A DNA stretch of 35,334 nucleotides. Source: a virus (taxonomy: Duplodnaviria; Heunggongvirae; Uroviricota; Caudoviricetes). Below the pieces are notes generated by a model that searched no databases, was not told the DNA's origin, and saw only the letters and a program-made list of their open reading frames with translations. How positions within the stretch are numbered: position 1 is the first letter of the stretch; every line of letters starts with the position of its first letter. Location of the stretch: IMG/VR virus record IMGVR_UViG_2778261179_000021, positions 1 to 35,334 of that record. One strand, given 5' to 3'. A program made the position numbers and the translations under genes. Below, piece after piece: positions 1-33,882 of this stretch.

Positions 1-21
1 ATGCGAGGGACAGTCGAAATT

Positions 22-351
22 ATGCGTTATCCCGTCACTCTTACACCCGCGCCGGAAGGCGGTTATATGGTTTCTTTTGTGGATATCCCTGAAGCGTTGA
101 CGCAGGGCGAAACTGTCGCTGAAGCGATGGAAGCGGCAAAAGATGCTTTACTGACCGCATTTGATTTTTATTTTGAAGATAACGAGCTTATCCCTTTACC
201 TTCGCCATTAAATAGTCATGATCACTTTATTGAAGTGCCTTTGAGCGTCGCCTCTAAGGTATTGCTGTTAAATGCTTTTTTACAGTCAGAAATCACTCAG
301 CAAGAGTTAGCCAGGCGAATTGGCAACCCGAATGTAGTCAACCCAAAATAA
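22..351 (+). CDS. hicB: HicB-family antitoxin-like protein; C-terminal HTH appears truncated
   Basis: GAGGGA RBS about 10 nt upstream of ATG at 22 (track ORF 1..351 starts at an in-frame ATG at the window edge). N-terminus MRYPVTLTPAPEGGYMVSF...QGETVAEAMEAAKDAL fits the HicB antitoxin fold. The C-terminal ...SEITQQELARRIG looks like the first helices of an XRE-type HTH, then 8 unrelated residues and a stop. Confidence 0.6.
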   Translation: MRYPVTLTPAPEGGYMVSFVDIPEALTQGETVAEAMEAAKDALLTAFDFYFEDNELIPLPSPLNSHDHFIEVPLSVASKVLLLNAFLQSEITQQELARRIGNPNVVNPK

Positions 352-583
352 CTAAAAATTTTGCAATAAAAAGCCCCATCTCAAGGACAAGGCTTAGAAA
401 TCAACTAATTAACATAGTTTCCAGATCAAAGGGGTTATAATGAAATCCATAAAAGGTGATCTGTTAGCTGGGTGCTGTATATCTAAAATGTTACTTAATT
501 AATATCGTTCTGGTGGTTAGCTTTCATCGCATCTCACCATTTTTGAGTAATCTTCATGCTATTGAATTGCATCATTTCACCTC

Positions 584-1363
584 TTACTCTGCGTCTACCA
601 TGTCACATGCAAATTGAGTGTGTTTATATTCAGAATCAAATTTTGGTTCAATTACTTCAAGACGCATGTCACCTTTTTTGCTTACCCAGATGTTATAAGT
701 GTTAACACGTCCAATAGCATCCTGTTTGGATTTACCTTCCATTGCGTTTGGATTCTCTTTAGATGGCTTGAGACTTGATTTATAAACATCATACTTGTCG
801 GAATACACAAAAGATACAGGAACATCGTCTACCATTTTGATCTTAAGTTTACCGCCGTTATTATCAAAAGTTTTGTTTCCGTAGAGTTTATCTTTTACAG
901 CTTCTGTTTCCTCACCATCGATAACTTTCCATGTAAATTTTGTAGTACATGCGTAAATCGCGGTAACATTCAGTTTCTTTACTTCTTCCTGTTTCGGTTG
1001 TTCTTCTTCAATCTTCGCAGAAGTCTCTGAATCGCTCTCTGACGCGGTTTCTTCTTTAGATAATACATTCATCAAGTTTTGGATTTGAGCGTTGTATACA
1101 GCCTCCAGTGGCTGAATCTGCCCGATATTGATCATTGTATCACGAACAGTTTTATTCCAGTTTCGTTGCTCTTGTTTCAGAGACGGATCAATCTTAACAG
1201 CCTTAACATATACTTCATGAAGTTTAGAATCCAGTGCGGAGATTGACTCATTAGCACAAATAAACTTCTCTGATTTGGTAGTGGCTTTAGCGCAATCAAA
1301 GGACGCAGCATCAGCACCGAAAGCAGTAGCAGAAAGAACGATAGCAGCGATAATGTTTTTCAT
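584..1363 (-). CDS. secreted protein with DUF1311/LprI-like N-terminal domain
   Basis: ATG at 1363 with AAGAGG RBS; N-terminal signal peptide MKNIIAAIVLSATAFGADA; FDCAKAT...FICANESISALDSKLHEVY...QEQRNWNK pattern resembles DUF1311 (lysozyme-inhibitor LprI N-domain). Confidence 0.6.
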   Translation of the reverse strand: MKNIIAAIVLSATAFGADAASFDCAKATTKSEKFICANESISALDSKLHEVYVKAVKIDPSLKQEQRNWNKTVRDTMINIGQIQPLEAVYNAQIQNLMNVLSKEETASESDSETSAKIEEEQPKQEEVKKLNVTAIYACTTKFTWKVIDGEETEAVKDKLYGNKTFDNNGGKLKIKMVDDVPVSFVYSDKYDVYKSSLKPSKENPNAMEGKSKQDAIGRVNTYNIWVSKKGDMRLEVIEPKFDSEYKHTQFACDMVDAE

Positions 1364-1721
1364 TTTATACCTCTTTTGGTATGGACTGACTTTTAGATGC
1401 TTACTTTATTGATTTTTGATATTTTTTCAATTATTGGGATGAGATTTAGTAATTAAATTAAGAAATTAATGCTTGACAAATTAAAAAGGTACTGTTCCAC
1501 GGATGAAATAAAGGGAGTTTTCGGCACCCCGGTATTTGATGTGCGTGTGAGATTCTAAAACGTGATCACTTCACTTATGGCGCGGTCGCTACGCGACTAT
1601 TAACCCACTTCCTAACCCTTACCATTACTGGATCTTTCCCTTCGTTAGAATGCGATTTAGGCGCTTAGATTGTGCGTAAAACCAATAAATAAAATTACGC
1701 AAATTTAATGGAGGATAACCA

Positions 1722-2276
1722 ATGAAAGAAGAATTAACCCTTACAGAAATTTCCCGTTTATATGGCTATACATTGAATGGTGGCGGTAAGCGATGGTTAG
1801 AAAGGGGATTGCCATTTAACACCAATACCCGCCGCGTGCCAGCCAAAGAAGGAACAGAATGGGTCTTGAAAAATATTATCAACCCGCTTAAACAAACTTC
1901 TATCAAAGAACAAATCGACGTAGAGAAATTACGCCGTGAACGTGCTTTGGCAGATGCAGCCGAACGAGAGAACCAGGAAAAAATGAATCTCCTGATTCCT
2001 GTCGGTTATGTAGAACAGGAACTAGCGGAATACTGCGGGAAAGTGAAACAGACTATTTTGCAGATTTGTACGATCGATGCCCTAGAAATTTTAGAATCCG
2101 CCACTGATCAGAAAACATTGAAGAATAAGCTAAGGGAGATCATCGAACGTCGTTTAAATGAAGTAGGGGACTTGTTCGAAAATGCAGATTTGGGAGAAGA
2201 CGAGGAAGAAGAATTAGCATTAATGGATGAACCGGAACAAGAACCAGAAGAAGACGATGAATTTGATGTGTCTTAA
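1722..2276 (+). CDS. putative small terminase subunit (Nu1-like winged-HTH protein) or DNA-binding regulator
   Basis: GGAGGA RBS; N-terminal HTH-like segment LTLTEISRLYGY...RWLERGLPF, then an EKLRRE-containing helical region and a very acidic C-terminus; by-eye resemblance to lambda Nu1 (G-M/L-P-V/F ... EKLRRE). Confidence 0.45.
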   Translation: MKEELTLTEISRLYGYTLNGGGKRWLERGLPFNTNTRRVPAKEGTEWVLKNIINPLKQTSIKEQIDVEKLRRERALADAAERENQEKMNLLIPVGYVEQELAEYCGKVKQTILQICTIDALEILESATDQKTLKNKLREIIERRLNEVGDLFENADLGEDEEEELALMDEPEQEPEEDDEFDVS

Positions 2277-2376
2277 ACATTAGATACTAAATATATACGT
2301 GAAGGATGTTGAGCTGGTCAACGTCTACGGGGGAGAACATCCCCCGCTAACCTTTTTCTTATTTGAGGATTTACCT

Positions 2377-2478
2377 ATGGTTGAATTTTTGATTTATCTG
2401 GCTGTAGGATTAACTATCGTATATTCACTTGCTCACATTGGCATTTCTACTGTGTGTAACGCTTTCAAGTATCATTAA
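2377..2478 (+). CDS. small hydrophobic membrane peptide (33 aa)
   Basis: GAGGA RBS 7 nt upstream of ATG; translation MVEFLIYLAVGLTIVYSLAHIGISTVCNAFKYH is a single predicted TM helix; not in the ORF track because shorter than 60 aa. Confidence 0.35.
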   Translation: MVEFLIYLAVGLTIVYSLAHIGISTVCNAFKYH

Positions 2479-2531
2479 TTAAATCGATGAATTGAACTAT
2501 AGATGATGGTCATTTTCAAAGAGGATTATCT

Positions 2532-2705
2532 ATGGATCTTTTTGTCTACTTTGCTACTCTGCTGTTTTTGACTATCGTCGCTGGCATTAAATTGATTTTT
2601 ATATCGCTGGTGGTGTTTTTCAAATTTCTAATCGGTACGCCTTACGGCTGGGTATGCTTAATCCAGTTTATTCTTTTTAGTTGCTGTAAAAAGGATACTA
2701 AATAA
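2532..2705 (+). CDS. small membrane protein (57 aa, two hydrophobic segments)
   Basis: AAAGAGGA RBS upstream of ATG at 2532; strongly hydrophobic translation MDLFVYFATLLFLTIVAGIKLIFISLVVFFKFLIG...; followed by two plus-strand terminators. Confidence 0.4.
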   Translation: MDLFVYFATLLFLTIVAGIKLIFISLVVFFKFLIGTPYGWVCLIQFILFSCCKKDTK

Positions 2706-2863
2706 TAGTGTAATCTGCCTTTTCTCCTTATGGTTATTAACAGGGGATCTTCTTTGAGGATTCCCGATTAAAAGCCATAAAACACACTCCAGTACAGTGT
2801 TTTCATAGTCAGTGATCTATACAACACAAAAACATAACAAGTATAGATTGAGTATTAATCCTC

Positions 2864-2887
2864 CCGCCCTTCGGGGCGGTTATTTTT
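2864..2887 (+). terminator. intrinsic terminator (CCGCCC-TTCG-GGGCGG hairpin plus T-run)
   Basis: Perfect 6-bp GC stem with TTCG tetraloop followed by TTATTTTT. Confidence 0.6.
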
Positions 2888-2963
2888 CTGGCTTTAAAGA
2901 ATAATGTAGCATTATGTTCATTATAACCTCATCTTTGTTGTGCAAACCTAACCTAAACTTACT

Positions 2964-2990
2964 AGGGACTCTTCGGAGTCCCTTTTTTAT
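2964..2990 (+). terminator. intrinsic terminator (AGGGACTC-TTCG-GAGTCCCT plus T6)
   Basis: 8-bp stem, TTCG loop, TTTTTT run; abuts the stop codon of the convergent minus-strand gene. Confidence 0.65.
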
Positions 2991-3928
2991 TGGCAGTAAG
3001 AAAAGTTAGTACCGTACATTTCATCATGAAGCATTGCAGCATTGCGTTTCTGTTCTTCTTCCTCGTCTACCGCATCACTAGAAAAATGAGATTTGCCCTT
3101 AAAAGAACGAAGCAATTGCAGTGCAGCCATCGGATCACGCATCACATCGATTTTCACTTCTACTTCATCATTTGCGGCCTCATCAGCCGCATTTTCAACT
3201 ACTGCCACCGGAGCAACTTCTTTAGCTTTCAGTTCTTCAATTTCAGCTTTCTGGGCTTCGATAATCTGGTCTTTTTCTTCCAGTGCAGCTTTCAGTTCTG
3301 CGATCTGTGCTTCCAGTGCAGCAAAGCGATCTTCTACAACAGGAGAAACAGCATTAACCTGTGCTTCCAGTTCCAGAAATGCTTCGCAAGATTCAATACG
3401 TTCTTTCTCTTCACCTTCATAAGCAACCAGTTCTACAACTTCTTTTTCGGTAGCGTGGCTGTTAAAGAATACAGCAAAGTAAGGATTGCCGGATTTAGTG
3501 AAGTTCAGTTTAGCTTTTCCGGTAACTTCTTTACGACGACCGAAGGTGATCTGGCAATCAGCGGTATCCTGAAAATCCATGTTAGGAGCGGAAACGATAG
3601 CAGTATCACCAGCAATCACCAGGTGGAACAGTTCAGAAGAGTTCTTAACGGTAAAGGTAACGATGTGGTCTACTGCAACGTCTTTAGCAGGTTTAACGCG
3701 GTCGATTGCTTTACGAATGCCGTTAGGCAGTTTACCGTCAACACCAAAGCCAGCCGCGATCAGTGCTTCACGATGTGCTTTAAAGCCAGCGAAAGCGGAT
3801 TTCTGCTGCGCAAAGGAAACATGAGCAACAACTTTCGGCTGAATCTTCTTGTTTGCTTCGGTGCCAAATTTGATAACTGCTTTAGCGTTGGTTACTTCGT
3901 TAGTGAAAAAGTTAGCGGAAAATAACAT
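2987..3928 (-). CDS. hypothetical protein with central coiled coil and acidic C-terminal region (313 aa)
   Basis: ATG at 3928 with GGAG RBS; long ORF; heptad-like region ...FAALEAQIAELKAALEEKDQIIEAQKAEIEELKAKE...; second gene of a leftward operon downstream of LexA-like boxes. Confidence 0.7.
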   Translation of the reverse strand: MLFSANFFTNEVTNAKAVIKFGTEANKKIQPKVVAHVSFAQQKSAFAGFKAHREALIAAGFGVDGKLPNGIRKAIDRVKPAKDVAVDHIVTFTVKNSSELFHLVIAGDTAIVSAPNMDFQDTADCQITFGRRKEVTGKAKLNFTKSGNPYFAVFFNSHATEKEVVELVAYEGEEKERIESCEAFLELEAQVNAVSPVVEDRFAALEAQIAELKAALEEKDQIIEAQKAEIEELKAKEVAPVAVVENAADEAANDEVEVKIDVMRDPMAALQLLRSFKGKSHFSSDAVDEEEEQKRNAAMLHDEMYGTNFSYCQ

Positions 3929-3970
3929 TATAAATACTCCTGTGGAAAGTTAGTTTTAATTGTTCATCGC

Positions 3971-4004
3971 AAAAGCCCCCTTGTTGCCGCAAGGGGGCTT
4001 TTTT
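3971..4004. terminator. bidirectional intrinsic terminator
   Basis: 9-bp perfect stem GCCCCCTTG/CAAGGGGGC flanked by AAAA on the left and TTTTTT on the right. Confidence 0.6.
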
Positions 4005-4042
4005 ATTTTTAAAGCCATCATATAATTCTCAGTCAAAGTTGA

Positions 4043-4222
4043 TTACCAAACGGTAGCTTCAATCTTCACTTTAATGTCATATCGTTTTAGCAGTTTTCTA
4101 AAATCAGAGGGGTCAATCCCTTCTTCCTTCAAAACCGCCAGCTTGTCACCCTGCATCGCTTCAAAATAACGTTTAGCAATCGGGAGTAATACTTCTCGTG
4201 TGAATCGTACAGGTTTAGCCAT
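4043..4222 (-). CDS. small HTH-module protein (59 aa), paralog of the 7412..7645 and 7675..8280 proteins
   Basis: Internal ATG at 4222 preceded by GAGGGA RBS (track ORF starts further upstream at 4282); motif PVRFTREV...EEGIDPSDFRKLLKRYDIKV...IEATVW is shared with the 77-aa protein (RFTKEQ...HGISIAQFYKNMKKLDIKF...IVEATGF). Confidence 0.55.
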   Translation of the reverse strand: MAKPVRFTREVLLPIAKRYFEAMQGDKLAVLKEEGIDPSDFRKLLKRYDIKVKIEATVW

Positions 4223-4320
4223 TTTTAATCCCTCATTGTTAGGTTTAAAAAATCTTAAAAAAGAGCTTTTCGCTCTGAACAATTCTATTTATAAAATGTT
4301 TTTCGAAAAACCCTGTAAAA

Positions 4321-4342
4321 CCACTGTATATCCGATCAGTGG
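4321..4342. promoter_or_regulatory. LexA-box-like inverted repeat (CCACTGTATATCCGATCAGTGG)
   Basis: CTG-N10-CAG with a consensus-like left half ACTGTATAT; lies immediately upstream of a candidate minus-strand -35 (TTTACA) for the 4222 gene. Confidence 0.4.
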
Positions 4343-4405
4343 GAGCACGAATTGCTAAAGAGAAGATTAATAATTAATCAATCCGTACAATATTCAACCG
4401 AAAAA

Positions 4406-4444
4406 GCACTGTATATCTAACCAGTGCTGTATGAGTTAACAGTG
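4406..4444. promoter_or_regulatory. two overlapping LexA-box-like sites, including TGCTGTATGAGTTAACAGTG (CTGT-N8-ACAG)
   Basis: 4406..4427 GCACTGTATATCTAACCAGTGC; 4425..4444 matches the SOS-box core CTGT-N8-ACAG with the left half CTGTATGAG as in the E. coli recA box. Confidence 0.5.
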
Positions 4445-4580
4445 AGTCAGGAGATTTTCAGAAGTGAACAATCATTTTTCATGCATGTATTTATACACGA
4501 AAAAATCATGCTTATCATCTATATGGGGATTGTTTGGAAAATTTCAACCCTTACCAGTGATAAAAAGTATAAAATAGTTC

Positions 4581-4594
4581 TTGACACATGTCAA
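4581..4594. promoter_or_regulatory. operator-like imperfect palindrome TTGACACATGTCAA overlapping a -35-like TTGACA
   Basis: Outer arms TTGAC/GTCAA perfectly symmetric; TTGACA hexamer at 4581..4586. Confidence 0.3.
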
Positions 4595-4790
4595 CAAACA
4601 TGATCTAAGCGAGAGGTGACTATCAAAATTTTTGTTTGAAAATGGTAGATTAGGATTATCAACCTTTATAATCTATTATGGCACGGAGACCTTTTGATGA
4701 TTCCTTTTAAATCATTAGATTACGCCACTTTTTGGTGATTTTTTGGTTAAATAATATACAATAATTTTCTATCAAAATATTTGATGGGAA

Positions 4791-4986
4791 TTGCCCCCGA
4801 AATTCTGAATTTTTGCCCCCGAACAAAATCCCAAGATTCTACTATCCTATTTTTGCCCCTGAAACCTACTATTTTTGCCCCTGAAATTCTGGGAAACAGT
4901 GATTTTGCCCCTCATTTTTGCCCCTGAAATGCCAATAATTGCCCCTGAAAATCTAATTTTTGCCCCTGAAATTTTCCCCCGAAAAG
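4791..4986 (+). repeat. iteron array: about 9 direct copies of TTTTTGCCCCTGAAA
   Basis: Cores at about 4793, 4815, 4855, 4877, 4907 (degenerate), 4920, 4941, 4962, 4976 (degenerate), all in the same orientation, with spacings of mostly 21-22 bp or multiples; inside a 1.4-kb region lacking credible ORFs. Confidence 0.8.
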
Positions 4987-5118
4987 GATTGGTGAGAAAA
5001 ACTCTTTATAAAACATTAACTTGGGTGGGGGTAAAGGCGGGGGATTCGGCGTGCATAGATATTATATAACACATTCGCTACGCTCATGTGTAAAACCAAA
5101 AATAACCAAAAAGATATT

Positions 5119-5138
5119 AGGAGGGCTTTGCCCGACTG
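5119..5138 (+). repeat. 20-bp direct repeat copy 1 (AGGAGGGCTTTGCCCGACTG)
   Basis: Matches 5508..5527 at 19 of 20 positions; contains internal GGGC...GCCC dyad. Confidence 0.75.
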
Positions 5139-5507
5139 CGCGAAGCGCTAACCAATTACTTCTAGTAACAACTAATTTAAACTAGATGATACTAGATGGT
5201 CTTAGAAGGAATTAACTAGTTTGCTCGCTCGCTTCGCTCACTCTCAAACGTCTGCGACGCCACTGCGTGGCATCGAGAATCACTTTTGAAAGGATTTTCT
5301 TAGAAAGGGATTTAATACTAGTTACTAACTGATTCTAGTAAACGAACGAAGTGAGTAACAATCACTTTCTAGAAAGGTATTGGTATCCCTTCGGGATTGC
5401 AACCTTCGGTTGCTAAATTGCTTCCTGATTATTATTTCTCCAAAAGAAAGATTCTTATATTCTAAAGATACTTCTTCGTTTTGATGATGATTTAATCAAA
5501 ACTATGA

Positions 5508-5527
5508 AGGAGGGCTATGCCCGACTG
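5508..5527 (+). repeat. 20-bp direct repeat copy 2 (AGGAGGGCTATGCCCGACTG)
   Basis: Matches 5119..5138 at 19 of 20 positions; 389 bp downstream of copy 1. Confidence 0.75.
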
Positions 5528-5612
5528 AATACAATCACCTTTCATAATAACAAGAATTTTCTCTTTATAAATAATATTAGATTGATTCACTTTCTTTTAG
5601 AGGATTTCCACT

Positions 5613-6080
5613 ATGAACCATAAAATGACTACCACTACTCCTTTCATCCTGTTAGGTTTTGATGCTGATAGCTTCCACAATGACAAGTTAATGAAGATGT
5701 TCCGTGAACGTGGTTATAACATCCTTTTCAATTCCGATGAATCTCATTTCTCTAGTGCATGGTATGCCTTCCACCGTGATAAGAAGCCGACCATTGTTGT
5801 TAACGTCTTCACCGATGAAGAACGCTTAAAGTACCAGAATCTACCAGCAATTATTGTTCGTGATGATCTTCCGTTTGAAGTCCGTTCCGGTGACATTGAC
5901 CTGGGTAGCTTCGTTACTGTCTATGAACTGGATGAAGCAATGTTTAACTACGGTAAAGAAACCGCTCAGGAAGCCCAAGAACACGATGAAGAGGATGAGG
6001 AAAACGAAGACTACGCACCAATCTGTTTCTCTTCTCAGAATGGCTTCTACGGTTACGATGAAGGCTTAGATATGCTGTAA
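5613..6080 (+). CDS. acidic hypothetical early protein (155 aa)
   Basis: AGAGGA RBS; ORF rich in D/E with an acidic C-terminal stretch EAQEHDEEDEENEDY; first plus-strand gene after the non-coding hub. Confidence 0.65.
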   Translation: MNHKMTTTTPFILLGFDADSFHNDKLMKMFRERGYNILFNSDESHFSSAWYAFHRDKKPTIVVNVFTDEERLKYQNLPAIIVRDDLPFEVRSGDIDLGSFVTVYELDEAMFNYGKETAQEAQEHDEEDEENEDYAPICFSSQNGFYGYDEGLDML

Positions 6081-6115
6081 GTTAGGTCAACCCTTTGGCG
6101 TCTTGTCAAGGGGTA

Positions 6116-6143
6116 TTGACAAAATTTTCTGACTTTTTATGAT
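6116..6143 (+). promoter_or_regulatory. sigma70-type promoter (TTGACA-16 nt-TATGAT)
   Basis: Consensus -35 TTGACA at 6116..6121 and -10 TATGAT at 6138..6143 with a 16-nt spacer, upstream of the 6202 and 6441 genes. Confidence 0.55.
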
Positions 6144-6201
6144 TATCGCACTTGACAACTTTGAACCTATTTGACCTAGATTTGTAAAGAGGATGTTAAT
6201 T

Positions 6202-6348
6202 ATGAACACTACTAAGAAAATTGATGGACGTAAAAACCCGAACCGCAAACCGTGGACCCCAAACCTGAATTTCTCAATGGTTGACTTCCATGAACGCCAG
6301 CGTCGCATTCAAGAAGAAATTGATCGCGCGATTGCTGAATCTAAATGA
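6202..6348 (+). CDS. small basic protein (48 aa)
   Basis: AAGAGGA RBS 7 nt upstream of ATG; translation MNTTKKIDGRKNPNRKPWTPNLNFSMVDFHERQRRIQEEIDRAIAESK; downstream of the strong promoter; absent from the track because shorter than 60 aa. Confidence 0.4.
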   Translation: MNTTKKIDGRKNPNRKPWTPNLNFSMVDFHERQRRIQEEIDRAIAESK

Positions 6349-6440
6349 GATAAAAATTTCTTTATAAATAAAATTGTTCCGGTGATGCTGCCGGAACTAG
6401 GAGGACCAAATCACTAAACCGTTTAAGGGGAATTTTTACT

Positions 6441-7271
6441 ATGAATACTGTTACTACTATGAATACTGCTGTTAAAACTGCTTCCGTGTCTCTGGTTGTT
6501 GATAACACCAAACCGCTGACCATGTCTACCCGTCAGATTGCTGAATTGACCGGAAAGAATCATAAGGATGTTATGCGTGATTTTCGTCGCATGATTGATT
6601 CTCTTGAAAAAGGAAGCGAATTAGCCGGGCGCAATTTTGCGCTGGGGTATTTTGTAGAATCTTCATATTTTGATAAGAATAATCAATCTCGCCCGATGTA
6701 TGAACTGGACGAAGATCTCTGTAATACTCTGGTTATGGGATACGATGCACCGCTTCGCTTCAAAATTGCTAAAGAATGGCGTTTGATGAAAGAAGGGAAA
6801 GCTAATGTTCCGGTTAATCCATATGAACACTTTGAAGAAACAGACTGGATCGAACTGGCGTTAAAGAAAACTCGCGAAAACAAACAACTGATTGAACTTC
6901 ATGTTCGTAAGTCTGTAGATAGCCATTCAATGACGCGTCTGTTAGGCGCTAAAAAGGGCGCTACGAAGGTTAAAGAAGCACTGACGGCCTTGCGTACTGC
7001 TGGATACATTGAGCGCGTCTATGATGAAAATAACAAGCCGTGTGGGTATGTTGCTAATGATTCCGCTTTACCGTTTTGCAGCATGAACGCTCACTATCAG
7101 CTTTCTTTTACTGTTGATGTGCTTCCGGTGTTGGTTGAATTTGGTGTTCTGGAAGAAGAACAAAAAGCAACTCTGAATCTTCCTAAGCCGAACAACACTA
7201 TTCTGATTCAAAATAAAGCGGCTGAACGTCTCCGTCAGAATGTTGGATCACTGGAAGTCTTCGGACTGTAA
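6441..7271 (+). CDS. Rha-family phage regulatory protein (antirepressor-like)
   Basis: N-terminal motif MSTRQIAELTGKNHKDVMRDFRRMIDSLEK is characteristic of the phage Rha domain; 276 aa; followed by an intrinsic terminator. Confidence 0.7.
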   Translation: MNTVTTMNTAVKTASVSLVVDNTKPLTMSTRQIAELTGKNHKDVMRDFRRMIDSLEKGSELAGRNFALGYFVESSYFDKNNQSRPMYELDEDLCNTLVMGYDAPLRFKIAKEWRLMKEGKANVPVNPYEHFEETDWIELALKKTRENKQLIELHVRKSVDSHSMTRLLGAKKGATKVKEALTALRTAGYIERVYDENNKPCGYVANDSALPFCSMNAHYQLSFTVDVLPVLVEFGVLEEEQKATLNLPKPNNTILIQNKAAERLRQNVGSLEVFGL

Positions 7272-7279
7272 TAATTTTT

Positions 7280-7305
7280 AGCCTCGCCTAGTGCGGGGCT
7301 TTTTC
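7280..7305 (+). terminator. intrinsic terminator after the Rha-like gene
   Basis: AGCCTCGC-CTAGT-GCGGGGCT hairpin (one G-U pair) followed by TTTTT. Confidence 0.55.
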
Positions 7306-7379
7306 ATACCTACATCACGCGACTTTTCGCGCCATCTTCCACCAACCCGCCGATGGCGTTTTGGACACCCTACAGATAC

Positions 7380-7403
7380 AAAAAAGCCACTCCGAAGAGT
7401 GGC
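7380..7403 (-). terminator. intrinsic terminator for the leftward HTH genes
   Basis: GCCACTC-CGAA-GAGTGGC hairpin preceded on the + strand by AAAAAA (a T-run on the minus strand). Confidence 0.55.
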
Positions 7404-7411
7404 AAAGAGAA

Positions 7412-7645
7412 TCAAAAACCTGTTGCTTCTACGATCTGACCATCACCGATCTGAACATAGAATTTAATGTCTAACTTCTTCATATTCTTATAGAATTGGG
7501 CGATTGAGATCCCATGTTCACTAAGAATCTGTTCTTTCGCTTCCTTACCACGATCCGCTGTATAGTAAGCGTAGGCAATATCAGCCATCTGTTCTTTAGT
7601 AAATCGTGCCGGACGACCGCGAGTAGCTTTAGTAGTCATAGTCAT
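7412..7645 (-). CDS. small HTH-module protein (77 aa), paralog of the 4043..4222 protein
   Basis: ATG at 7645 with GGAGAAA RBS (track ORF begins at an upstream GTG); TRGRPARFTKEQMADIA...HGISIAQFYKNMKKLDIKF resembles psq/resolvase-type HTH seen in phage DNA-binding proteins and some small terminases. Confidence 0.6.
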   Translation of the reverse strand: MTMTTKATRGRPARFTKEQMADIAYAYYTADRGKEAKEQILSEHGISIAQFYKNMKKLDIKFYVQIGDGQIVEATGF

Positions 7646-7674
7646 TTTCTCCAAATTAAAGTGAATGTTCACCT

Positions 7675-8280
7675 TTATTTAGAGGACTTAGATTTTATAG
7701 GAAAAAGTTCTCCATCGTCAACTGACATAAAGAACTCGACCTTAATCTCGTACTTCTTCAACCGTGAATAATATGTACCCCGACTTATATCAACCTTGCG
7801 AAGCACTTCAAAGAAGGATTTAGGATCGTTGTAATAGTGGCTGTACTTCACGTTAGCGAGTTCTACAAACAATTCCCTTGTATCACCATATCCTTTCTTA
7901 AAAGCTATGTTACGTGGCATTGTAATAGCCATATTATCCCTTGTCTGCTTCAACACTTCTCTGATCGGCTTCCACTGCAAACGATAGATAGGACCGTCAT
8001 CAATGCGATAATAACGCTTGATATCAAAATCAAACCAATCTCGGACTCTCCGAAACTCTGTATGTGATGTTCTATGCTTCTTAAAGAAGTTGTGAACGTC
8101 TCTATAGCCATTATCACGGTAAAATTCTATTAAAATCTCTTTCGCTTCCTCACGGCTAAACCCAGATGTTGTGTAATCGGTCTTTAAGTGCTTATGTTTT
8201 ACTGGCAAACGATATTCATGATCGGTACAACAAGACAAGGCTAATTCTACTTCATCTCTTTGTTGCTGATTAATTAGCAT
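7675..8280 (-). CDS. protein with two tandem HTH-like modules related to the small HTH paralogs (201 aa)
   Basis: ATG at 8280 with AAGGGGG RBS; internal duplication (…FFKKHRTSHTEFRRVRDWFDFDIKRYY… and …FFEVLRKVDISRGTYYSRLKKYEIKVEFF); transcribed divergently from the large terminase gene. Confidence 0.65.
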   Translation of the reverse strand: MLINQQQRDEVELALSCCTDHEYRLPVKHKHLKTDYTTSGFSREEAKEILIEFYRDNGYRDVHNFFKKHRTSHTEFRRVRDWFDFDIKRYYRIDDGPIYRLQWKPIREVLKQTRDNMAITMPRNIAFKKGYGDTRELFVELANVKYSHYYNDPKSFFEVLRKVDISRGTYYSRLKKYEIKVEFFMSVDDGELFPIKSKSSK

Positions 8281-8367
8281 ACAACCCCCTTAAATCTTAA
8301 TACCCGTATTTATCAAAATATCAACAATTTAATAAATACCTTCATATTTCGTAATGAGGGTAATTAC

Positions 8368-10272
8368 ATGAAACTGATTTCGAACAAGGCCAAATTAAAA
8401 AAGATTCTCAGAAATGTTTCTGCTGCAATTCGCCCACCTAAAGCGATGAAACCTAGTGAATGGGTAGAGGCTAATGTAGTTGCAACCGATGGTGTTAAAG
8501 CCGGATCTCTTATTAAATTGCATCACTTCCAACGTGGGATGATGGACGCGATTACCGAAGATAAGCGAAAGATTGTCATGAAATGCTCGGCGCAGTTGGG
8601 TAAAACTATGGTGCTCAACGGTATTATCTTTCACAGGATCGCCACCAATCCAACCAATATAGGTGTTTTACAAGCGAACGTTCGAGAATTGAACTCATGG
8701 ATCGCGGGTAAGGTGAAGCCAGTATTAGAGGCAACCCCAGAATTAAAGGCGATGATCACCGACAAATCGGATCGCAATGCCGTTAATAACACATCGCAGA
8801 TACAGCTTAGAAATGGGTCGTTTCTTTATTTCATGTCATTGAATAGTCCATCCCATCTCCGGGGTAAGACTTTGCCGTTGATCCTTGCAGACGAGGTGGA
8901 TGGTTGCGACGAATCAGACGAAGGGAACCCGATCCAGCTAGCGGAACAACGTGCTTCCACTTTCGGGGAAGATGCAAGGATCGTAATTGCTTCTACTCCA
9001 ACGTCGCGGGATGGGGCGATAAACCAACAATACGAACTCTCAGATAAACGAAAATACTATGTTCCATGCCAGCATTGCGGACACCGACACGTAATGGAAT
9101 GGAGTAACGTTCATTTCGATTGGCATCAAGTTAACGGTAAATCACTGCCTAACCCAGATACAGCCGTTTATCGTTGCCCGTCATGTGAAACTGATTGGAC
9201 AGAAGGGGATCGCCTACGTGCTGTTGCTAAGGGAGAATGGATCGCCACCGAACCTAATGCGGAAGTAATCGGTTTTCATGCTAACCGCCTTATGTCTCCG
9301 TTTAGTTCTATCCGTGCGTGTGTGGTGGATTTTGCTGATAGCTACGCGAATATGTCACTGGCAACGTTCTATAACACTGTCTTAGGTGAAACCTTCGATG
9401 ATCTTAACGAAGACCGCACAGCCGACGAACTGGAAACGCTGAAAACTGACATTAGCCTAGACAACATCCCCGATGATGTTCTGGCTCTGGTTGGTGGTGT
9501 TGACCAGCAAAAAGACCGTCTGGAATCTACCTTGCTGGGTATTTCTCGTAAAGGGCTATGCGTAGTTGATCACCGATCATTCTATGATGTGAACTGCGAA
9601 CGCCACGAATCGCCAGCATACAGCCAGCTTTACAACTTCCTGAAAGCGAAATTCTATACCCGATCCGGTCAACGAATCCCAATGCTATCTGCTTTCGTGG
9701 ACTCATCAAACGGACGAGCTACGCAAGTGATCTACCGATTCTGCACACAATGGCAAAACCTAACAGCCATTAAAGGGGCAAGCAATGTTGATGCACCAAT
9801 CCTTCCGGTAAAAGACACAAGAACGGGCGGTTTTACTCTCAAAATTCTGGGCGTAAACAACCTTAAGACGATGATCCGTGAAATGATTAACCGGAACTTG
9901 AGAGATGGCGATCCTCACACTGTTTTCCAGATTGGCGACGTTCCTGATGACTATTGCGAGCAATTGCTTTCTGAACAGTTGAAACGGCAGGGTAATACCA
10001 CACGTTGGGTAAAAGTTGGTCAGCAACGAAACGAGGCGCTCGACTGCCTGGCTTATTCCTATGCTGCTTCTCGCCATGTACTCAATAAAATGTCATGGGA
10101 AAAACTCGAAGCCATCAAAGATAGTTTGAACCGTGAACCAGAAGAATCCGTAGAAGCTCCTAAATCGCAATCTGACGAGAAAATAGAAGAAACTAAGCCA
10201 ATCACACGACCACAACGTCAAAACATCGCCAGACGCCCAAATAGAGGCCGTAGCTGGGTAACATCGTTCTAA
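8368..10272 (+). CDS. terL: terminase large subunit, lambda GpA family
   Basis: 634 aa; by-eye matches to lambda gpA landmarks: SAQLGKT Walker-like segment, zinc-ribbon-like PCQHCGH...RCPSCETDW, FYNTVLGETFD (lambda FVNTTLGETWE), QRNEALDCLAYSYAA (lambda RRNEALDCFVYALAA). Confidence 0.85.
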   Translation: MKLISNKAKLKKILRNVSAAIRPPKAMKPSEWVEANVVATDGVKAGSLIKLHHFQRGMMDAITEDKRKIVMKCSAQLGKTMVLNGIIFHRIATNPTNIGVLQANVRELNSWIAGKVKPVLEATPELKAMITDKSDRNAVNNTSQIQLRNGSFLYFMSLNSPSHLRGKTLPLILADEVDGCDESDEGNPIQLAEQRASTFGEDARIVIASTPTSRDGAINQQYELSDKRKYYVPCQHCGHRHVMEWSNVHFDWHQVNGKSLPNPDTAVYRCPSCETDWTEGDRLRAVAKGEWIATEPNAEVIGFHANRLMSPFSSIRACVVDFADSYANMSLATFYNTVLGETFDDLNEDRTADELETLKTDISLDNIPDDVLALVGGVDQQKDRLESTLLGISRKGLCVVDHRSFYDVNCERHESPAYSQLYNFLKAKFYTRSGQRIPMLSAFVDSSNGRATQVIYRFCTQWQNLTAIKGASNVDAPILPVKDTRTGGFTLKILGVNNLKTMIREMINRNLRDGDPHTVFQIGDVPDDYCEQLLSEQLKRQGNTTRWVKVGQQRNEALDCLAYSYAASRHVLNKMSWEKLEAIKDSLNREPEESVEAPKSQSDEKIEETKPITRPQRQNIARRPNRGRSWVTSF

Positions 10273-12406: not shown

Positions 12407-14410
12407 ATGCTTAAATTTCGCCGCGATCTTAACGGTTACGGTGGGGTTATTAATGAAGGGCATAACGATCAATACGAATTTGAAATTGCTTTCTCAAGTA
12501 CACAGCCTTATCAGCGCCAATTTTGGGATGAGCAAAATCAAGAAATGGTGGTATTAGATGAAATTCTGGTACATACACCGGAAGCGGTTGATCTGTCTCG
12601 TCTGAATAATAACGCTCCGTTGCTGTTCAATCACAATTTCGATAATCACATTGGTGTCGTTTGTAACGCTCGAATCGATGCGGATAACGTAGGTCGTGCT
12701 CTGGTTAAATTCTCCAAGCATGGGACTATGGCTAATGATATTCGTAACAAAGTCATTGAAGGTACGATGGAAAAAATATCGGTCGGCTATGACATTAAAG
12801 AGTATCACATCGATTACGCCAAAGGGCAATTGATTGTTACTAAGTGGGCACCCTATGAACTCTCATTTGTCACCGTTCCCGCAGACGATACGGTCGGTTT
12901 AAATCGCTCTCTAAATACTATCACAGTTAATTTGGAGGCTAAACGCGATATGACTAAAGAACAAATTGAAGAAATCAAAGAAGAACAAGAATCCGCTCAG
13001 GTTGAAGAAACTCCGGTAGAAGAAAATAAAGAATCGGAAGTAGAAGAAACTCAAGAGCGCCAAGTTGAAGAGAATAAAGAAGATGAAAATCTCGAAGACG
13101 GAAAAGACGCTGAACATCCTGAAAGTGTTGATGATGATAGTTCAACTGTTCGGGAAGCAGAAGAAGTAAAAGAAGAACGTGAAGCCGCTCCGGTTGAAGA
13201 AGAAAAAATCGAAGAAGTGGCTGAACGTTCCGAAGAAGACGAATTAGAAATTCGCGAGATCGCTCGCGAGCTAAATATTAACGACGAAGAATTAGAACGC
13301 GCATTGGCAGTTAAAGATATGACGCCGGAAGCATTCCGCACTAAGGCACTAAATAACATTACCAATGCTCAACGTATTAACGAACAACAAATTAAGGACT
13401 CTAAAATGGAAAAAACTTTTGACCTGAACAACGTAATTCGCTCTCTGGTAGATGGTGAAGCTCTGGGTGCTAACGAAGCCGAGTTTTCTGCAATGGCTGC
13501 TACTGCAACTATGCAGCGTGGTCGTGCTGCTCGCGGTGGCTCTGTATTCGTTCCGACTGCTGCTATGCGTGCTGCTGCTGATGGTAACACCAAAGCTACT
13601 CTGACCGCTGTAACCGACGAAAAACTGCTGAATGATTCCTATGTAGCGATGCTGATGCCGGAATCCGTTCTGGGTCGTCTGGGTGTGAAAGTCCTGTCTG
13701 GTCTGACTTCTCCGACTGCTATTCCGAAAATGACCGCTTCCAGCGTTGAATCTTTCGGCTTCGTTGATGAAAACGGTGCTGCACCGGAAGGTAAAGCTGA
13801 ATTTGCAAACGTGAAAATGGCTCCGAAAACTTTTGCTGGTGGCAACCCGATCAGCCGTCAGTCTCTGAAAACCGTTCCGGGCATCGCTACCCTGATCACT
13901 GATCACATTAACCAAGCTGTTCGTGTCAAACTGGAACAACTGATTCTGTCTGATAAAGAAAATGCTCGTGGTCCGGCTGGTGTGATTAAGCAACTGGTTG
14001 ATGCAAGCCGTGTTGAGAAGAAAGCTGCTTTCTCTTACAAAGACTTCCTGAAAGAAATTGCTAAACTGACCGACGCTGGCGTTCCTGCTCAGGCGATCAA
14101 GTTTGCGATGAGCGGTGCAACTGCTGCTGAACTGGAATCTACCCTGAAAGATAACGGTGTTTCCGGTTATATCATCGAAAACGGTAAACTGGCTGGTTAC
14201 GACGTAGTTACTTCTGGTGTTATTCCGGTAGACCACATCGTTCTGGGTGACTTCTCCGCTATTACCATCGGTGAATGGGGCGGTCTGGAACTGGACATTG
14301 ACGACACTACCTACCGCGCACAGTCCGCAATTGTTCCGCGTATCTGGGTAGATCTGGATTATGTAGTTACCCAGCCGGAAGCTCTGAAAGTTCTTCACGT
14401 CTCTGAATGA
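12407..14410 (+). CDS. fused prohead protease (HK97/S78-like) - acidic scaffold-like linker - major capsid protein
   Basis: 667 aa; N-terminal domain ends with the protease-family signature ...YELSFVTVPADD; about 130 residues of E/K-rich low-complexity linker; C-terminal about 330 aa consistent with an HK97-fold capsid protein; ends in TGA. Confidence 0.8.
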   Translation: MLKFRRDLNGYGGVINEGHNDQYEFEIAFSSTQPYQRQFWDEQNQEMVVLDEILVHTPEAVDLSRLNNNAPLLFNHNFDNHIGVVCNARIDADNVGRALVKFSKHGTMANDIRNKVIEGTMEKISVGYDIKEYHIDYAKGQLIVTKWAPYELSFVTVPADDTVGLNRSLNTITVNLEAKRDMTKEQIEEIKEEQESAQVEETPVEENKESEVEETQERQVEENKEDENLEDGKDAEHPESVDDDSSTVREAEEVKEEREAAPVEEEKIEEVAERSEEDELEIREIARELNINDEELERALAVKDMTPEAFRTKALNNITNAQRINEQQIKDSKMEKTFDLNNVIRSLVDGEALGANEAEFSAMAATATMQRGRAARGGSVFVPTAAMRAAADGNTKATLTAVTDEKLLNDSYVAMLMPESVLGRLGVKVLSGLTSPTAIPKMTASSVESFGFVDENGAAPEGKAEFANVKMAPKTFAGGNPISRQSLKTVPGIATLITDHINQAVRVKLEQLILSDKENARGPAGVIKQLVDASRVEKKAAFSYKDFLKEIAKLTDAGVPAQAIKFAMSGATAAELESTLKDNGVSGYIIENGKLAGYDVVTSGVIPVDHIVLGDFSAITIGEWGGLELDIDDTTYRAQSAIVPRIWVDLDYVVTQPEALKVLHVSE

Positions 14411-19200: not shown

Positions 19201-19738
19201 TTCCGCTCATAACATCTGGAAAGCGACACATTGGGGTAAATATCACATTGCAGCAATGGGTGTGCATGTTCCTAGTGGTACTATCGGTAACGCTCTTGTG
19301 CGTCTCCATGTTCATGATACTAACTTTGACTTTAACGCTGCTGGTGATTTTACCGCAGGTCGCAACGGTAGCTTTAACGATGTTTACATTCGCTCTGACT
19401 CTCGTCTGAAAATTAACAAGGAAGAATTACAGGACGGCGCATTAGAGAAAGTAAACTCCCTGAAAGTCTACACCTACGATAAAGTTAAATCTCTTTCCGA
19501 TGACACAGTGATTAAACGCGAAGTAGGCATTATTGCTCAGGATCTGGAAAAAGTATTGCCGGAAGCGGTAGGTATTCAATCCACAGAAGATCCAGAACAT
19601 CCAGAAGCAATCAAGACTATTTCTAACTCTGCTGTCAATGCTTTAATCATCAAGGCTATGCAGGAAATGGACGCCAAATATAAAGCGCAGATCGAAGCAT
19701 TACATAAAGAGATTGCCGAACTGAAAGCAACTAAATAA
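16220..19738 (+). CDS. long tail fibre with C-terminal intramolecular chaperone (peptidase S74-like) domain
   Basis: 1172 aa; N-terminal about 51-aa tandem repeats (…AKAELNQTITSTRDT…); C-terminal about 115 aa …IRSDSRLKINKEEL…VGIIAQDLEKVLPEAV…NALIIKAMQEMDAKYKAQIEALHKEIAELK match the self-cleaving chaperone domain of endosialidase/T5-type L-shaped fibres. Confidence 0.8.
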   Translation: MQSIQFKRTQTAGKKPTPEQLSQGEIALQLADHVIYTKDKNNNVVQISVSPEKHAELNTKVDNNKTSTDRVIAANKKEAADNLASAKAELNQTITSTRDTLNASITAGDTAANKRIDALTTTVGNNKTEAANALAAAKTELNQTITSTRDTINATINKNKTDINARVDQTNTNVTNLTNTVAANKSAIEKTVADNKKDADTKITNLTSTVSANKTAIERTVANNKASADAAIAAANQRIDSIEGSADAAYIKKNTNTYHHGYLLSKTANYFDDAGARNLDYFGAFRPNNAEGWGNLILNIPHSGGKAHGRGFEFHYGSSSSQVKTYGFDKDGNKRFSYRMYHEGDKPTPTELGVYSKAEVDQMFTKPVHMSTGENAAGYFKLATATIPQGGRGFFIRIFGGNGYNVNSPDQCDIVEIVIRSGNGNPKGVNVVAYRRNTNNEFETFAVNTSGDNYDIYVKYRKYTDKVTVEYGKSADVTLNVYDTPELTLVKPSTGVNEGRVITLFNTENKRGTLSFDNNSQATYDIVSLSAAQDRNKKYLRKFRSQAVETIWHEVVNGSSYRLATGVTDSTDVFQIDSTGSVAGPYKGNVTTGRMELNGGSNALTLRRPAGQSNHITFQDNRSGNITRQGWIGYGDADTNALQIYSDVGSNKFALETNGQISLNVGATKIVYSNGQYYSANSDAFRMIYGNYGAFWRNDGTKVYLLSTAENDRFGGWNGNRPFIYDLTNGKVTLGGDGNEGALVLERDSRAARFSNNVFLEKGLLTFSAGGNQSMDSFTINHWGNSNADRYNVLQFQDTSGTHFTTERNGSGGLLAHFRGDLTTEGKLTWGKGTATSSFNIRAWGADARKQVFECADESGWHWYTQRPGGPGTTAIEFAINGTVKPQAIHTGGNILLNGADIEFRRTGNKHIWFRDPTGLELGLMYSDDAGVIRFRGQKQAQTWKLADKMIQLESGTVTGGGNGLIRGEVAGGSWASWRDRAAGLMVGCPRSTDSAHNIWKATHWGKYHIAAMGVHVPSGTIGNALVRLHVHDTNFDFNAAGDFTAGRNGSFNDVYIRSDSRLKINKEELQDGALEKVNSLKVYTYDKVKSLSDDTVIKREVGIIAQDLEKVLPEAVGIQSTEDPEHPEAIKTISNSAVNALIIKAMQEMDAKYKAQIEALHKEIAELKATK
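16430..16930 (+). repeat. in-frame tandem repeats (about 153-nt unit) within the tail fibre shaft
   Basis: For example GCTAAAGCTGAACTTAATCAGACTATCACTTC at about 16475 versus GCTAAGACTGAACTGAATCAGACTATTACTTC at about 16628. Confidence 0.6.
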
Positions 19739-31853: not shown

Positions 31854-31891
31854 TTAAAGCGTTTGGTTCGTTATACGGCGATTTAGGCCGC

Positions 31892-32153: not shown

Positions 32154-33833
32154 TTAAATTCCAAATTCTTGTAATGGACCTGGTATTTCTTCTTCTGGTT
32201 TCCAGTTCTTATCTGTCAGCATGTCTAAACATGGATGCAGAACAAGCCCGTTACTCTCCAGAATCTGCCTATCATTGATAGTCTTCAAATCAACGAAGAT
32301 CCGGCCTTTCCTCGGTCCTCTTGAATTTTCTATTACAACTCTCTGGGTCTTGCCATCGATGTATTCCAGTACAAACAAGTTTTTGTACTTGTCAATCCTG
32401 CTACACCCGATCCGTTTTAGAGCTTGCTTAATCTTAAACCGGACCTTAATGCGATCCTCGTTGTAAACATCTTCTAAATCAAATTCTACGAGCTTCTCCC
32501 AGCCTTGAGAGTCAACAGAATACATTTCCTCTTCTGCCATCTTAATTTGATTGTAGAGTGTTTCACGCTCGCTATTGAGGGTAGTAATCTGATCGGCTAG
32601 CTCCTTCGTTGCTCCTGTCATAGCAGAAAGGGTAATCAGGTTATCAATCTTGCGTGATATTTCATCAATCTGTACTTTCAAAGCCGGAACCGGATTAGCC
32701 TTATCTTCAGCAATCCAGATTTTATCAGCCAGCAATTGCAATACAGCTTTCTCTAATTGGTCGCCGCGAAAACTCCAGTTTGTATGCACACATTCAATAC
32801 GACTAGAGCGCATTGCATCGCATGAATAACGATATTGGTTAGGCCGTCTGTTTGTTCCTTTCACCTTAACCATAGCGGAACCGCAATGTTCACATTTCAA
32901 TAGACCAACACCACTAAGCAAGGGAATAGGTTTAACTTCTTCTTTGTCTCCAAAGTTACATGCTCTAACACCAATGCTTTTCTTAAGGTGATAAAACTCA
33001 GCGTCATCTAGCACACGAGGATAATAATCCTTTAACTCATACTTAACGCCATCTACAGAGATTTCCTTGATACCAATCAAAGCGCGGGTATGGAACAACC
33101 TTTCAATCATTGCCCGTGACCAGTTTGAATGCCTCTTGTGACTTGCGGCTGGTGGTGGTGTGTATGTCGCGTTAAGGTGATCCAGTATCTCGGCGGTTGA
33201 CCGTCCATTCCTGCGTAATTCCACAACTTCCTGAACAATAGGGAAGAAGACCGGATGAGGAAGCACATAACCAGATGTGGTATCAGTCCACCACATATTC
33301 TTTCCAATTTCCTCGATTGCAACAGCCGGATTTTGTGGATTTTCTTGATGAGCTTTAATCTTAATCAGTGCGCTTGAGTTAGTACGATTGCGCTTAGTCT
33401 GGCTTTCCTCATTACCACGGATGAATAAAAGGATGGAGAACATCAGGTCCATCGGGTTAGCGGTAACAGTATCCAGCGAGTAGATCTTGTTATCCATGCC
33501 AGTAACAATGGTTATCCCCCTACGGATGATTGAAAGGAATAACTCCTGCGCACTGACAATATCGGCACGGGATAAACGGTCCAAGTTTTCGATGAATAGC
33601 CAGCTACCAACAGGAACGGATCTACCTATTGCATCAAGGAAACGAGATAGCGCCCCTGTTTTGGAGTTAGCACCCTTAAACGCAGATACACCCAGATCCT
33701 GATAATCATTTACCAGTTCAAGGTCATACTTTACCGCAATCTCTCTAGCCATCCTGATTTGTCGTTCATAACTCGAACCATCATTCTGACGCATAGACGA
33801 GAAGCGAATATACGAATACAGTTTAGTTTTCAT
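32154..33833 (-). CDS. large serine recombinase (probable integrase)
   Basis: 559 aa from ATG 33833 (track start is an upstream TTG); N-terminal resolvase-type catalytic domain with YIRFSSMRQ (serine nucleophile) and …ENLDRLSR…; C-terminal extension with zinc-ribbon-like cysteines (CEHCGS…YRYSCD) and a coiled coil. Confidence 0.9.
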   Translation of the reverse strand: MKTKLYSYIRFSSMRQNDGSSYERQIRMAREIAVKYDLELVNDYQDLGVSAFKGANSKTGALSRFLDAIGRSVPVGSWLFIENLDRLSRADIVSAQELFLSIIRRGITIVTGMDNKIYSLDTVTANPMDLMFSILLFIRGNEESQTKRNRTNSSALIKIKAHQENPQNPAVAIEEIGKNMWWTDTTSGYVLPHPVFFPIVQEVVELRRNGRSTAEILDHLNATYTPPPAASHKRHSNWSRAMIERLFHTRALIGIKEISVDGVKYELKDYYPRVLDDAEFYHLKKSIGVRACNFGDKEEVKPIPLLSGVGLLKCEHCGSAMVKVKGTNRRPNQYRYSCDAMRSSRIECVHTNWSFRGDQLEKAVLQLLADKIWIAEDKANPVPALKVQIDEISRKIDNLITLSAMTGATKELADQITTLNSERETLYNQIKMAEEEMYSVDSQGWEKLVEFDLEDVYNEDRIKVRFKIKQALKRIGCSRIDKYKNLFVLEYIDGKTQRVVIENSRGPRKGRIFVDLKTINDRQILESNGLVLHPCLDMLTDKNWKPEEEIPGPLQEFGI

Positions 33834-33846
33834 ACCATTTCCAAAC

Positions 33847-33882
33847 AAAAACGCCCCTACCGCGTATTATAACGATAGGGGC
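33847..33882 (-). terminator. putative intrinsic terminator between the secreted-protein gene and the recombinase
   Basis: GCCCCTA ... TAGGGGC 7-bp stem with 16-nt loop, preceded on the + strand by AAAAA. Confidence 0.35.

Follow-up and report, generated by a model that had tools for sequence, protein, structure and literature searches.

Where does a phage with a lambda-type terminase keep its packaging-recognition gene and its cohesive-end site (cos) when the genes of the two terminase subunits are not neighbors? This question is raised by a stretch of 35,334 nucleotides from a virus of the Caudoviricetes (IMG/VR record IMGVR_UViG_2778261179_000021, positions 1 to 35,334; the whole stretch is called the window here). 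Near its left end, an open reading frame (ORF) at 1722..2276, referred to as terS, encodes a protein resembling Nu1, the small terminase subunit of lambda, and the gene of the large terminase subunit (terL) begins only at 8368. Our main explanation, which we regard as fairly probable, is that a divergent Nu1-type small subunit (TerS) and a GpA-family large subunit (TerL) are encoded by uncoupled genes, and that the recognition site, cosB-like and probably cos itself, lies beside terS.

The terS protein matched no Pfam family at E <= 0.1, its own score lying below the curated Pfam threshold, and had no relevant NCBIfam match. Its sole PHROG match was phrog_57 'terminase small subunit' (E 6e-11), and a single-sequence search of the PDB returned only a spurious epimerase match. 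Close homologs (at least 52% identity) are confined to E. coli, Salmonella and Proteus, where they are mostly labeled 'hypothetical' and have no Pfam domain on record. A profile of 17 such homologs (A1), searched against 1.8 billion representative proteins, retrieved 216 relatives at E <= 0.001, mostly of 150-200 aa and matched end to end. Among the full-length relatives scanned, the Pfam domain Phage_Nu1 is found in 40 of 75 (best E 9e-28) and DUF1441 in 16 of 75. The link of terS to PF07471 Phage_Nu1 is transitive, running through these profile-search relatives.

Comparison of profiles with hhalign gave a direct relation. A Nu1-like set was formed by the 26 profile-search relatives picked for their match to lambda Nu1 at E 1e-8 to 1e-14, and A1 aligned with this set at 99.7% probability (E 1e-26) over 150 columns, covering residues 2-152. 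The protein is collinear with Nu1-like terminases over its full length, including the DNA-binding domain, the helical core, the C-terminal helical part and the size of ~180 aa. With the single lambda Nu1 sequence the probability is 93.5% (E 2e-7; residues 5-94 aligned to 3-112), the aligned part taking in the DNA-binding domain, which corresponds to residues 1-68 of lambda Nu1, and the beginning of the helical core. In the PDB, chains that represent this domain of Nu1 (1j9i, 6hn7_B and 7lw0) match A1 weakly (E 0.1-0.7) and the extended profile A2 strongly (E 2e-15 to 1e-12), with the N-terminal register correct. In the reverse direction, a hidden Markov model of the Nu1-like set, which holds no member of the terS protein's own family, matches ORF 1722..2276 at E 3e-23. 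The AlphaFold2 model of the protein is helical (predicted local distance difference test score, pLDDT, 72), with helices at 41-89, 94-113 and 130-153. An earlier note on this DNA had described the protein as a Nu1-like small terminase and as the only one in the window, and both descriptions are borne out: of the 321 ORFs with 40 aa or more in the six reading frames, the Nu1-like profiles match no other. Judged by these profile comparisons, the product of ORF 1722..2276 genuinely belongs to the Nu1 family, as a divergent member, and no other protein of the phage is a candidate for the small terminase.

The DNA-binding domain fold of Nu1 is common with helix-turn-helix (HTH) proteins of the MerR/excisionase type, and some of the remote profile matches carry HTH_17 or MerR domains. 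Moreover, the terS gene lies near attP and the integrase end, in its own unit and distant from terL. These features would suit a Nu1-derived DNA-binding protein that has no packaging role, for example a transcription factor or a recombination directionality factor serving the serine integrase encoded nearby, with another protein as recognition subunit; we consider this improbable. In one form of this explanation, the true recognition subunit would be, for example, the 201-aa tandem-HTH protein, whose gene is divergent from terL, always adjoins it and is conserved at 84-92%. The earlier note had likewise proposed an HTH paralog as the recognition subunit. Three proteins, of 79, 86 and 201 aa, are mutually paralogous, having a ~55-aa domain in common that is present in two copies in the 201-aa protein. 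They belong to no Pfam or PHROG family and have no homologs outside the phage group. Profile comparison detects no relation between them and the Nu1 family (hhalign gives a probability of 1%), and the model of the 201-aa protein consists of two three-helix-plus-hairpin repeats with resemblance only to generic Myb/HTH domains. On profile and fold, the HTH paralogs were rejected as TerS. Possible roles for them are regulation of the late operon or binding of the iterons; one paralog pair is always divergent from terL.

The partner of TerS is readily recognized. The terL product matches PF05876 (GpA_ATPase, E 2e-60) and PF20454 (GpA_nuclease, E 4e-46), and it is 23% identical to lambda gpA over 600 aa (E 1e-25). 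The canonical lambda order, with terS directly upstream of or overlapping terL, is not found here: 6,091 bp (2277-8367) lie between the terS stop and the terL start. This interval holds regulatory genes and an iteron region, and the gene directly preceding terL is the minus-strand gene of the 201-aa HTH protein, all as the earlier note had described. In addition, terminator-like hairpins stand behind terS; six such sites were found in total vs 1.6 expected. The two predicted terminators indicate that terS is a short unit of its own, outside the terL operon.

This separation is kept in all relatives, and together with the Nu1-family assignment it supports the idea of an unusual split terminase arrangement. 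GpA-family terL and terS genes occur together in every relative examined, and their start-to-start distance is 5.4-9.1 kb among 25 IMG/VR loci, E. coli chromosomes, and Salmonella and Proteus genomes. The order is constant: terS, minus-strand genes, a long non-coding region, a 150-aa gene, usually a Rha-family gene, an HTH paralog gene on the minus strand, and terL. Even in the most distant relative found (PQ671644; TerL 44% and TerS 32% identity), which is also the only cultured relative in the phage collection, terS and terL are non-adjacent. As attP is situated between the integrase end and lprI, the cargo gene at the left end, the distance between terS and terL is unchanged in the excised circle and is not an artefact of prophage permutation. 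Insertion sequence elements are found within the region in some copies, as might be expected if the arrangement had arisen through decay or rearrangement of the prophage and did not reflect how a live phage orders its genes. However, 58-64 E. coli genomes have this order with their ORFs intact, at more than one integration site, and it recurs in Salmonella and Proteus; the region shows the mosaic exchange typical of active phages, and the gene set of the window is complete for head, tail, lysis and integration. Decay is therefore a highly improbable explanation.

PQ671644 (Escherichia phage DCP80; our loci L002/L034) is a 141-kb record classed as T4-like Gaprivervirus. It contains a ~26-kb siphophage structural module, with the GpA terminase and the Nu1-like gene at one end, and rIIA is present twice, in opposite orientations. 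The mixture of T4-like genes with a siphophage module looks chimeric, and the record was set aside as a relative with defined ends, its ends not being trusted.

A conserved non-coding block of ~250 bp lies directly upstream of terS. Its left edge is sharp, at CTTGACAAA (1472-1480), beyond which cargo genes or the att arm vary by relative. The block was aligned among 13 lineages with TerS identity down to 50%. It is present in 61 of 5426 E. coli genomes, at about one place each and only together with this prophage, and strain PI7 (NZ_CP074033) carries it with 100% identity; satellites or extra copies of the block were not found in these 5426 genomes, the partial matches being other lineages of the same prophage. 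For the block as an RNA leader or riboswitch, neither an Rfam match nor a covarying structure was detected.

Within the block, the 16-mer GCGGTCGCTACGCGAC is the longest fully invariant run across seven lineages with diverged flanks, and it is unique within the window. It is contained in the 19-mer GGCGCGGTCGCTACGCGAC, found exactly at 1579-1597, which the earlier note had marked as a dyad that could be a cos-like or operator element. As a dyad it did not hold: the symmetry is limited to GTCGC-TAC-GCGAC (5 bp + 3 + 5 bp), does not rise above chance and is missing from the output of the repeat search. As an element it stood, by virtue of the invariant 16-mer, and a cos-like or operator role is plausible and strengthened by its conservation and by the linkage to TerS domain type described below. 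A clearer dyad, TGCGTAA-N15-TTACGCA, lies just upstream of the terS ribosome-binding site (RBS), where 0 matches are expected by chance. Its half-sites are kept without covariation in 10 lineages, and it is probably the site of a dimeric protein (an operator or a further terminase site) and not an RNA helix. Element A, further upstream, has no hairpin and no predicted RNA structure, and might serve as one candidate for cosN.

The stretch TTCGTTATACGGCGATTTAGGCCGCCTATGATT at 31867-31899, just past the lysis-operon terminator, resembles TTCGTTAGAATGCGATTTAGGCGCTTAGATT in the block (1641-1671). As a second copy of the TTCGTTA..GCGATTTAGGC element it was not used, its alignment score being within the chance range across the window.

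TerS is a mosaic protein, in which two main types of N-terminal domain are joined to different C-terminal halves. The type-1 domain is characterized by YGYT(L/I)N..KKW...RRVP and the type-2 domain by YGYSLPAV.KW...RRCP. The 16-mer is present with every type-1 domain, and another sequence replaces it with type-2. This pattern is independent of the TerL type (94%, 81% or 55-59% identity to that of the window) and of the C-terminal half of TerS. Particularly, at one locus (L038) the 16-mer and the DNA-binding domain are swapped together, while the far-upstream element A and the C-terminal half of TerS are of the window type. In phages lambda and 21, the R sites of cosB and the recognition helix of Nu1 define packaging specificity (PMC4669245). 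The exchange of an upstream DNA element together with the N-terminal domain of TerS resembles the relation between these two phages.

It is somewhat more probable than an even chance that cos is located in the block upstream of terS, the 16-mer being a cosB-like TerS site. The block is favored by elimination of the other non-coding regions: among the sizeable non-coding segments compared, it is the only one that travels with the terminase genes in every lineage. The gap between terL and its divergent neighbor was rejected as the site of cos, as its 87 bp are AT-rich and promoter-like and must hold two divergent promoters. The iteron region was also rejected, as its segment 4787-5279 is replaced as a cassette in relatives with near-identical terminase genes (94-97%). 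Contig ends were of no help in locating cos: those in IMG/VR are gene or prophage-prediction boundaries and show no pile-up, and 11 metagenome contigs have no common end, their ends being assembly boundaries.

Several observations weigh against this placement. Physical linkage alone could also yield the co-exchange of the 16-mer and the DNA-binding domain. There is no evident trio of R repeats as in lambda, and no layout of three repeats (R) plus IHF was seen in the alignment of the block. In the main rival explanation, the protein would still be the small terminase and the block only the promoter/operator of terS, with cos at another place: within a coding sequence close to terL, in the non-coding region of 1.3 kb, or in the interval between the lysis genes and int. 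The block opens with an A-tract and a conserved TTGACA, which at 1473 would belong to the promoter, and in several lineages a TGnTAG extended -10-like box follows 17 nt downstream; however, a sigma-70 scan detected no plus-strand promoter in 1300-3000, and the -10 position of the window itself reads TCCACG. The dyad at 1673-1701 would be the site of a repressor or autoregulator. Its halves stand on either side of a TAnnAT box that closely precedes the RBS, and it is identical across all types of DNA-binding domain, as expected for a common regulator, but the 16-mer lies ~100 bp downstream of TTGACA, exceeds the promoter-like parts in conservation and changes with the type of DNA-binding domain in TerS. 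As for the position of cos itself, P2 provides a precedent for a terS gene away from cos, and a GC-rich stretch, GGGTGGGGGTAAAGGCGGGGG, is found at ~5023-5045 in the non-coding region; yet this stretch falls in the segment that gives way to other sequence in phages whose TerL is 94-95% identical, and the shortness and AT-richness of the gap before terL are no more favorable. We thus regard a location of cos outside the block as rather unlikely.

In the model that we favor, with the recognition site beside terS, TerS would consist of a winged-HTH DNA-binding domain, a long oligomerization helix and a C-terminal part with an acidic tail, and would work with the GpA-family TerL encoded 6 kb downstream. 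The ~250-bp block most likely carries the packaging recognition site, as cos is located upstream of Nu1 in lambda. The DNA-binding domain of TerS would read the invariant 16-mer as a cosB-like site, with the nicking site nearby. The module for replication and regulation lies between the two genes, and terL heads the structural operon.

In all lineages TerS has an acidic tail with the terminal motif (D/E)F(D/E)(V/L/I)(S/I/V), and TerL has a basic N-terminus with K..SNK.KLK(K/R)I(L/F). At one locus (L003), TerS is 100% identical to that of the window and TerL only 55% identical; the first 15 residues common to both TerL types are MKLISNKAKLKKIL(R/K). In lambda, the C-terminus of Nu1 binds the N-terminus of gpA (PMC4669245), and by analogy the acidic tail of TerS may contact the conserved basic N-terminus of TerL. 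A broader proposal, which we put forward tentatively and with somewhat less than even confidence, is that the packaging-recognition module (cos and the DNA-binding domain of terS) is an autonomous swappable cassette beside attP, with the entire early region between it and terL. Mixing of domains, halves and TerL types would be tolerated through a short invariant contact between the TerS tail and the TerL peptide, and virion DNA would start with terS and the early genes in place of the head genes, from a lambda-type cos on a permuted map, each subunit being regulated independently.

Two allelic types of terL occur within E. coli, with 55-59% protein identity (loci L003, L005, L007 and L010), and the terS and upstream 201-aa genes that accompany them are the same for both. 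In some terL genes of the two types, the last ~80 residues are again 97-100% identical. From these sequences, the exchange of terL type looks like that of an internal cassette.

The features of the window are collected in Table 1.

Table 1. Features of the window, from the left-end cargo gene to the integrase; positions are those of the window.
Feature	Position	Strand	Description
lprI cargo gene	584-1363	-	LprI-family (lysozyme-inhibitor-like) secreted protein; adjoins attL
Conserved non-coding block	1465..1721	+	~250 bp; candidate packaging-recognition (cos) region or terS promoter/operator
Element A	1515..1537	+	GAGTTTTCG; GC-rich core, TTT; in most lineages, to 50% TerS identity
Element B1	1582..1597	+	16-mer GCGGTCGCTACGCGAC; candidate TerS-binding site, cosB R-like
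Dyad TGCGTAA-N15-TTACGCA	1673..1701		Just upstream of terS RBS
terS	1722..2276	+	184 aa; ATG start; RBS GGAGG at 1710-1714
Parts of the terS protein			N-terminal winged HTH (~residues 1-55), long helix, helical C-terminal part, acidic tail ending EFDVS
Two small hydrophobic ORFs	2299/2377..2478 and 2532..2705	+	Co-oriented with terS; relatives carry other small ORFs here
Terminator-like hairpins	2864-2879 and 2964-2983	+	T run after each; end of terS unit
Early/regulatory module	2987..8280	both	Between terS unit and terL
313-aa coiled-coil protein	within 2987..8280	-	
79-aa HTH paralog	4043-4282	-	
Non-coding stretch	4290-5600		1.3 kb; operators and iterons
155-aa protein		+	Between the non-coding region and the Rha gene
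Rha-family regulator	6441..7271	+	
86-aa HTH paralog	7412-7672	-	
201-aa HTH paralog	7675-8280	-	Divergent from terL
terL-proximal intergenic region	8281..8367		87 bp, AT-rich, divergent; probably promoters, without GC-rich motif
terL	8368..10272	+	634 aa, GpA-family
Fused prohead protease and major capsid protein	12407-14410		Single 667-aa ORF
Large serine integrase	32154..33848	-	Likely recombinase; three small genes (-) also at right end

In the module between terS and terL, the long non-coding stretch contains ~11 copies of TTTTTGCCCC(T/C)GAAA at 4790-4985. It also harbors two palindromic CACTGTATATC..CAGTG sites (4321-4341 and 4406-4426), a repeated 20-mer, AGGAGGGCT(T/A)TGCCCGACTG, at 5119 and 5508, and several GC-rich hairpins. 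By its sequence, this stretch looks like an iteron origin with operators; no recognizable replication initiator or CI-type repressor is encoded in the window.

The window represents essentially an entire ~35-kb E. coli prophage inserted in hicB, AT-rich with a GC content of ~42%. The 5' part of E. coli hicB makes up its first ~330 bases. Strain 266917_2 carries this element with one half of hicB on each side, the 3' remnant being found just past the position of the window end. ORF 1..351 consists of the N-terminus of HicB, the antitoxin of the hicAB toxin-antitoxin pair, and a few phage-derived codons. Other integration sites are used in relatives, for example in Salmonella, beside a 2-hydroxyacid dehydrogenase/PHP-domain gene. 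The terS gene lies ~1.3 kb inside attL here and ~110 bp from the att arm in relatives without the lprI cargo; the cargo at this position differs among other relatives. The 5' third of lprI (especially 983-1369) has 96-98% DNA identity to a hypothetical gene that many virulent T4-like phages carry (Krischvirus and other Tevenvirinae), which suggests a recent gene exchange between a temperate siphophage and T-even phages.

Downstream of terL, the genes of a head-tail joining protein, a lambda-B-type portal, the fused protease/capsid protein, tail proteins and an endolysin follow. The protease-capsid ORF of a Proteus relative (L029) carries Peptidase_S78 and Phage_capsid domains. The C-terminal half of a 1172-aa fiber (16220-19738) matches distal subunits of T-even long tail fibers (phrog_1699, E 1e-135), and a gp38-like tail fiber adhesin (phrog_1121) is encoded at 20437-20943 in this siphovirus-type prophage.

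Annotation pipelines and tools for typing prophages or terminases usually seek terS directly upstream of terL. In the annotated carrier strain, the RefSeq label of terS is 'hypothetical protein', and close relatives are mostly hypothetical in the database sources; with terS so labeled, the packaging module looks incomplete. Members of the phage group occur in Salmonella, in Proteus and in ~1% of complete E. coli genomes, and our literature searches found no description of the group. If the upstream block is cos, recognition (by terS and its site) would recombine independently of catalysis (by terL) in these phages, making them a natural system of use for studying the evolution of packaging specificity and subunit compatibility. 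The defined cos would also allow prediction of satellites or plasmids mobilizable by these phages.

Compared with known systems, the terminase is closest to that of lambda (also 21 and N15), with a Nu1-type TerS bearing an N-terminal winged HTH and a GpA-type TerL. As in lambda, a small head-tail joining gene and then a lambda-B-type portal gene follow terL, and the conserved block directly upstream of terS occupies the position of cos (the ATG of lambda Nu1 is at nt 191). The differences are in arrangement and divergence. In lambda, Nu1 (191..736) and A (711..2636) overlap, whereas here 6.1 kb with a replication/regulatory module and two terminators lie between the genes, so that they cannot be co-transcribed as one unit. 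Moreover, TerS here is too divergent for Pfam Phage_Nu1 and has a long acidic tail, and the cohesive ends of this phage are only predicted.

Non-adjacent terminase genes in separate transcription units are also known from P2 and 186 (cos - Q, P leftward / O, N, M rightward), in which terS likewise does not stand beside the promoter of terL. In the P2 record, cos occupies 1-19; the minus-strand terL (P) spans 1221..2993 and the plus-strand terS (M) 5157..5900, placing terS 5 kb from cos and 2.2 kb from terL. However, the P2 genes are on opposite strands within the morphogenesis cluster, separated by 2.2 kb of head genes, whereas the two genes of the present phage share one strand at a distance of 6 kb, and the intervening DNA holds early/regulatory genes and an iteron region. 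The families differ as well: P2 and 186 use gpM/gpP proteins with cos beside the portal gene, and the present phage uses Nu1- and GpA-type proteins with the portal gene after terL on the same strand. Rpp (redirecting phage packaging) proteins, encoded by phage-inducible chromosomal islands, are TerS-like only in the N-terminal domain and reside in satellites; in contrast, the terS protein here is collinear with Nu1-like terminases over 150 columns and belongs to a complete phage. The known terminase mechanism is unchanged by these findings. The machine is a known one, of the lambda Nu1/gpA type, and the new part is the genome architecture, in which an early/replication module stands between terS and terL.

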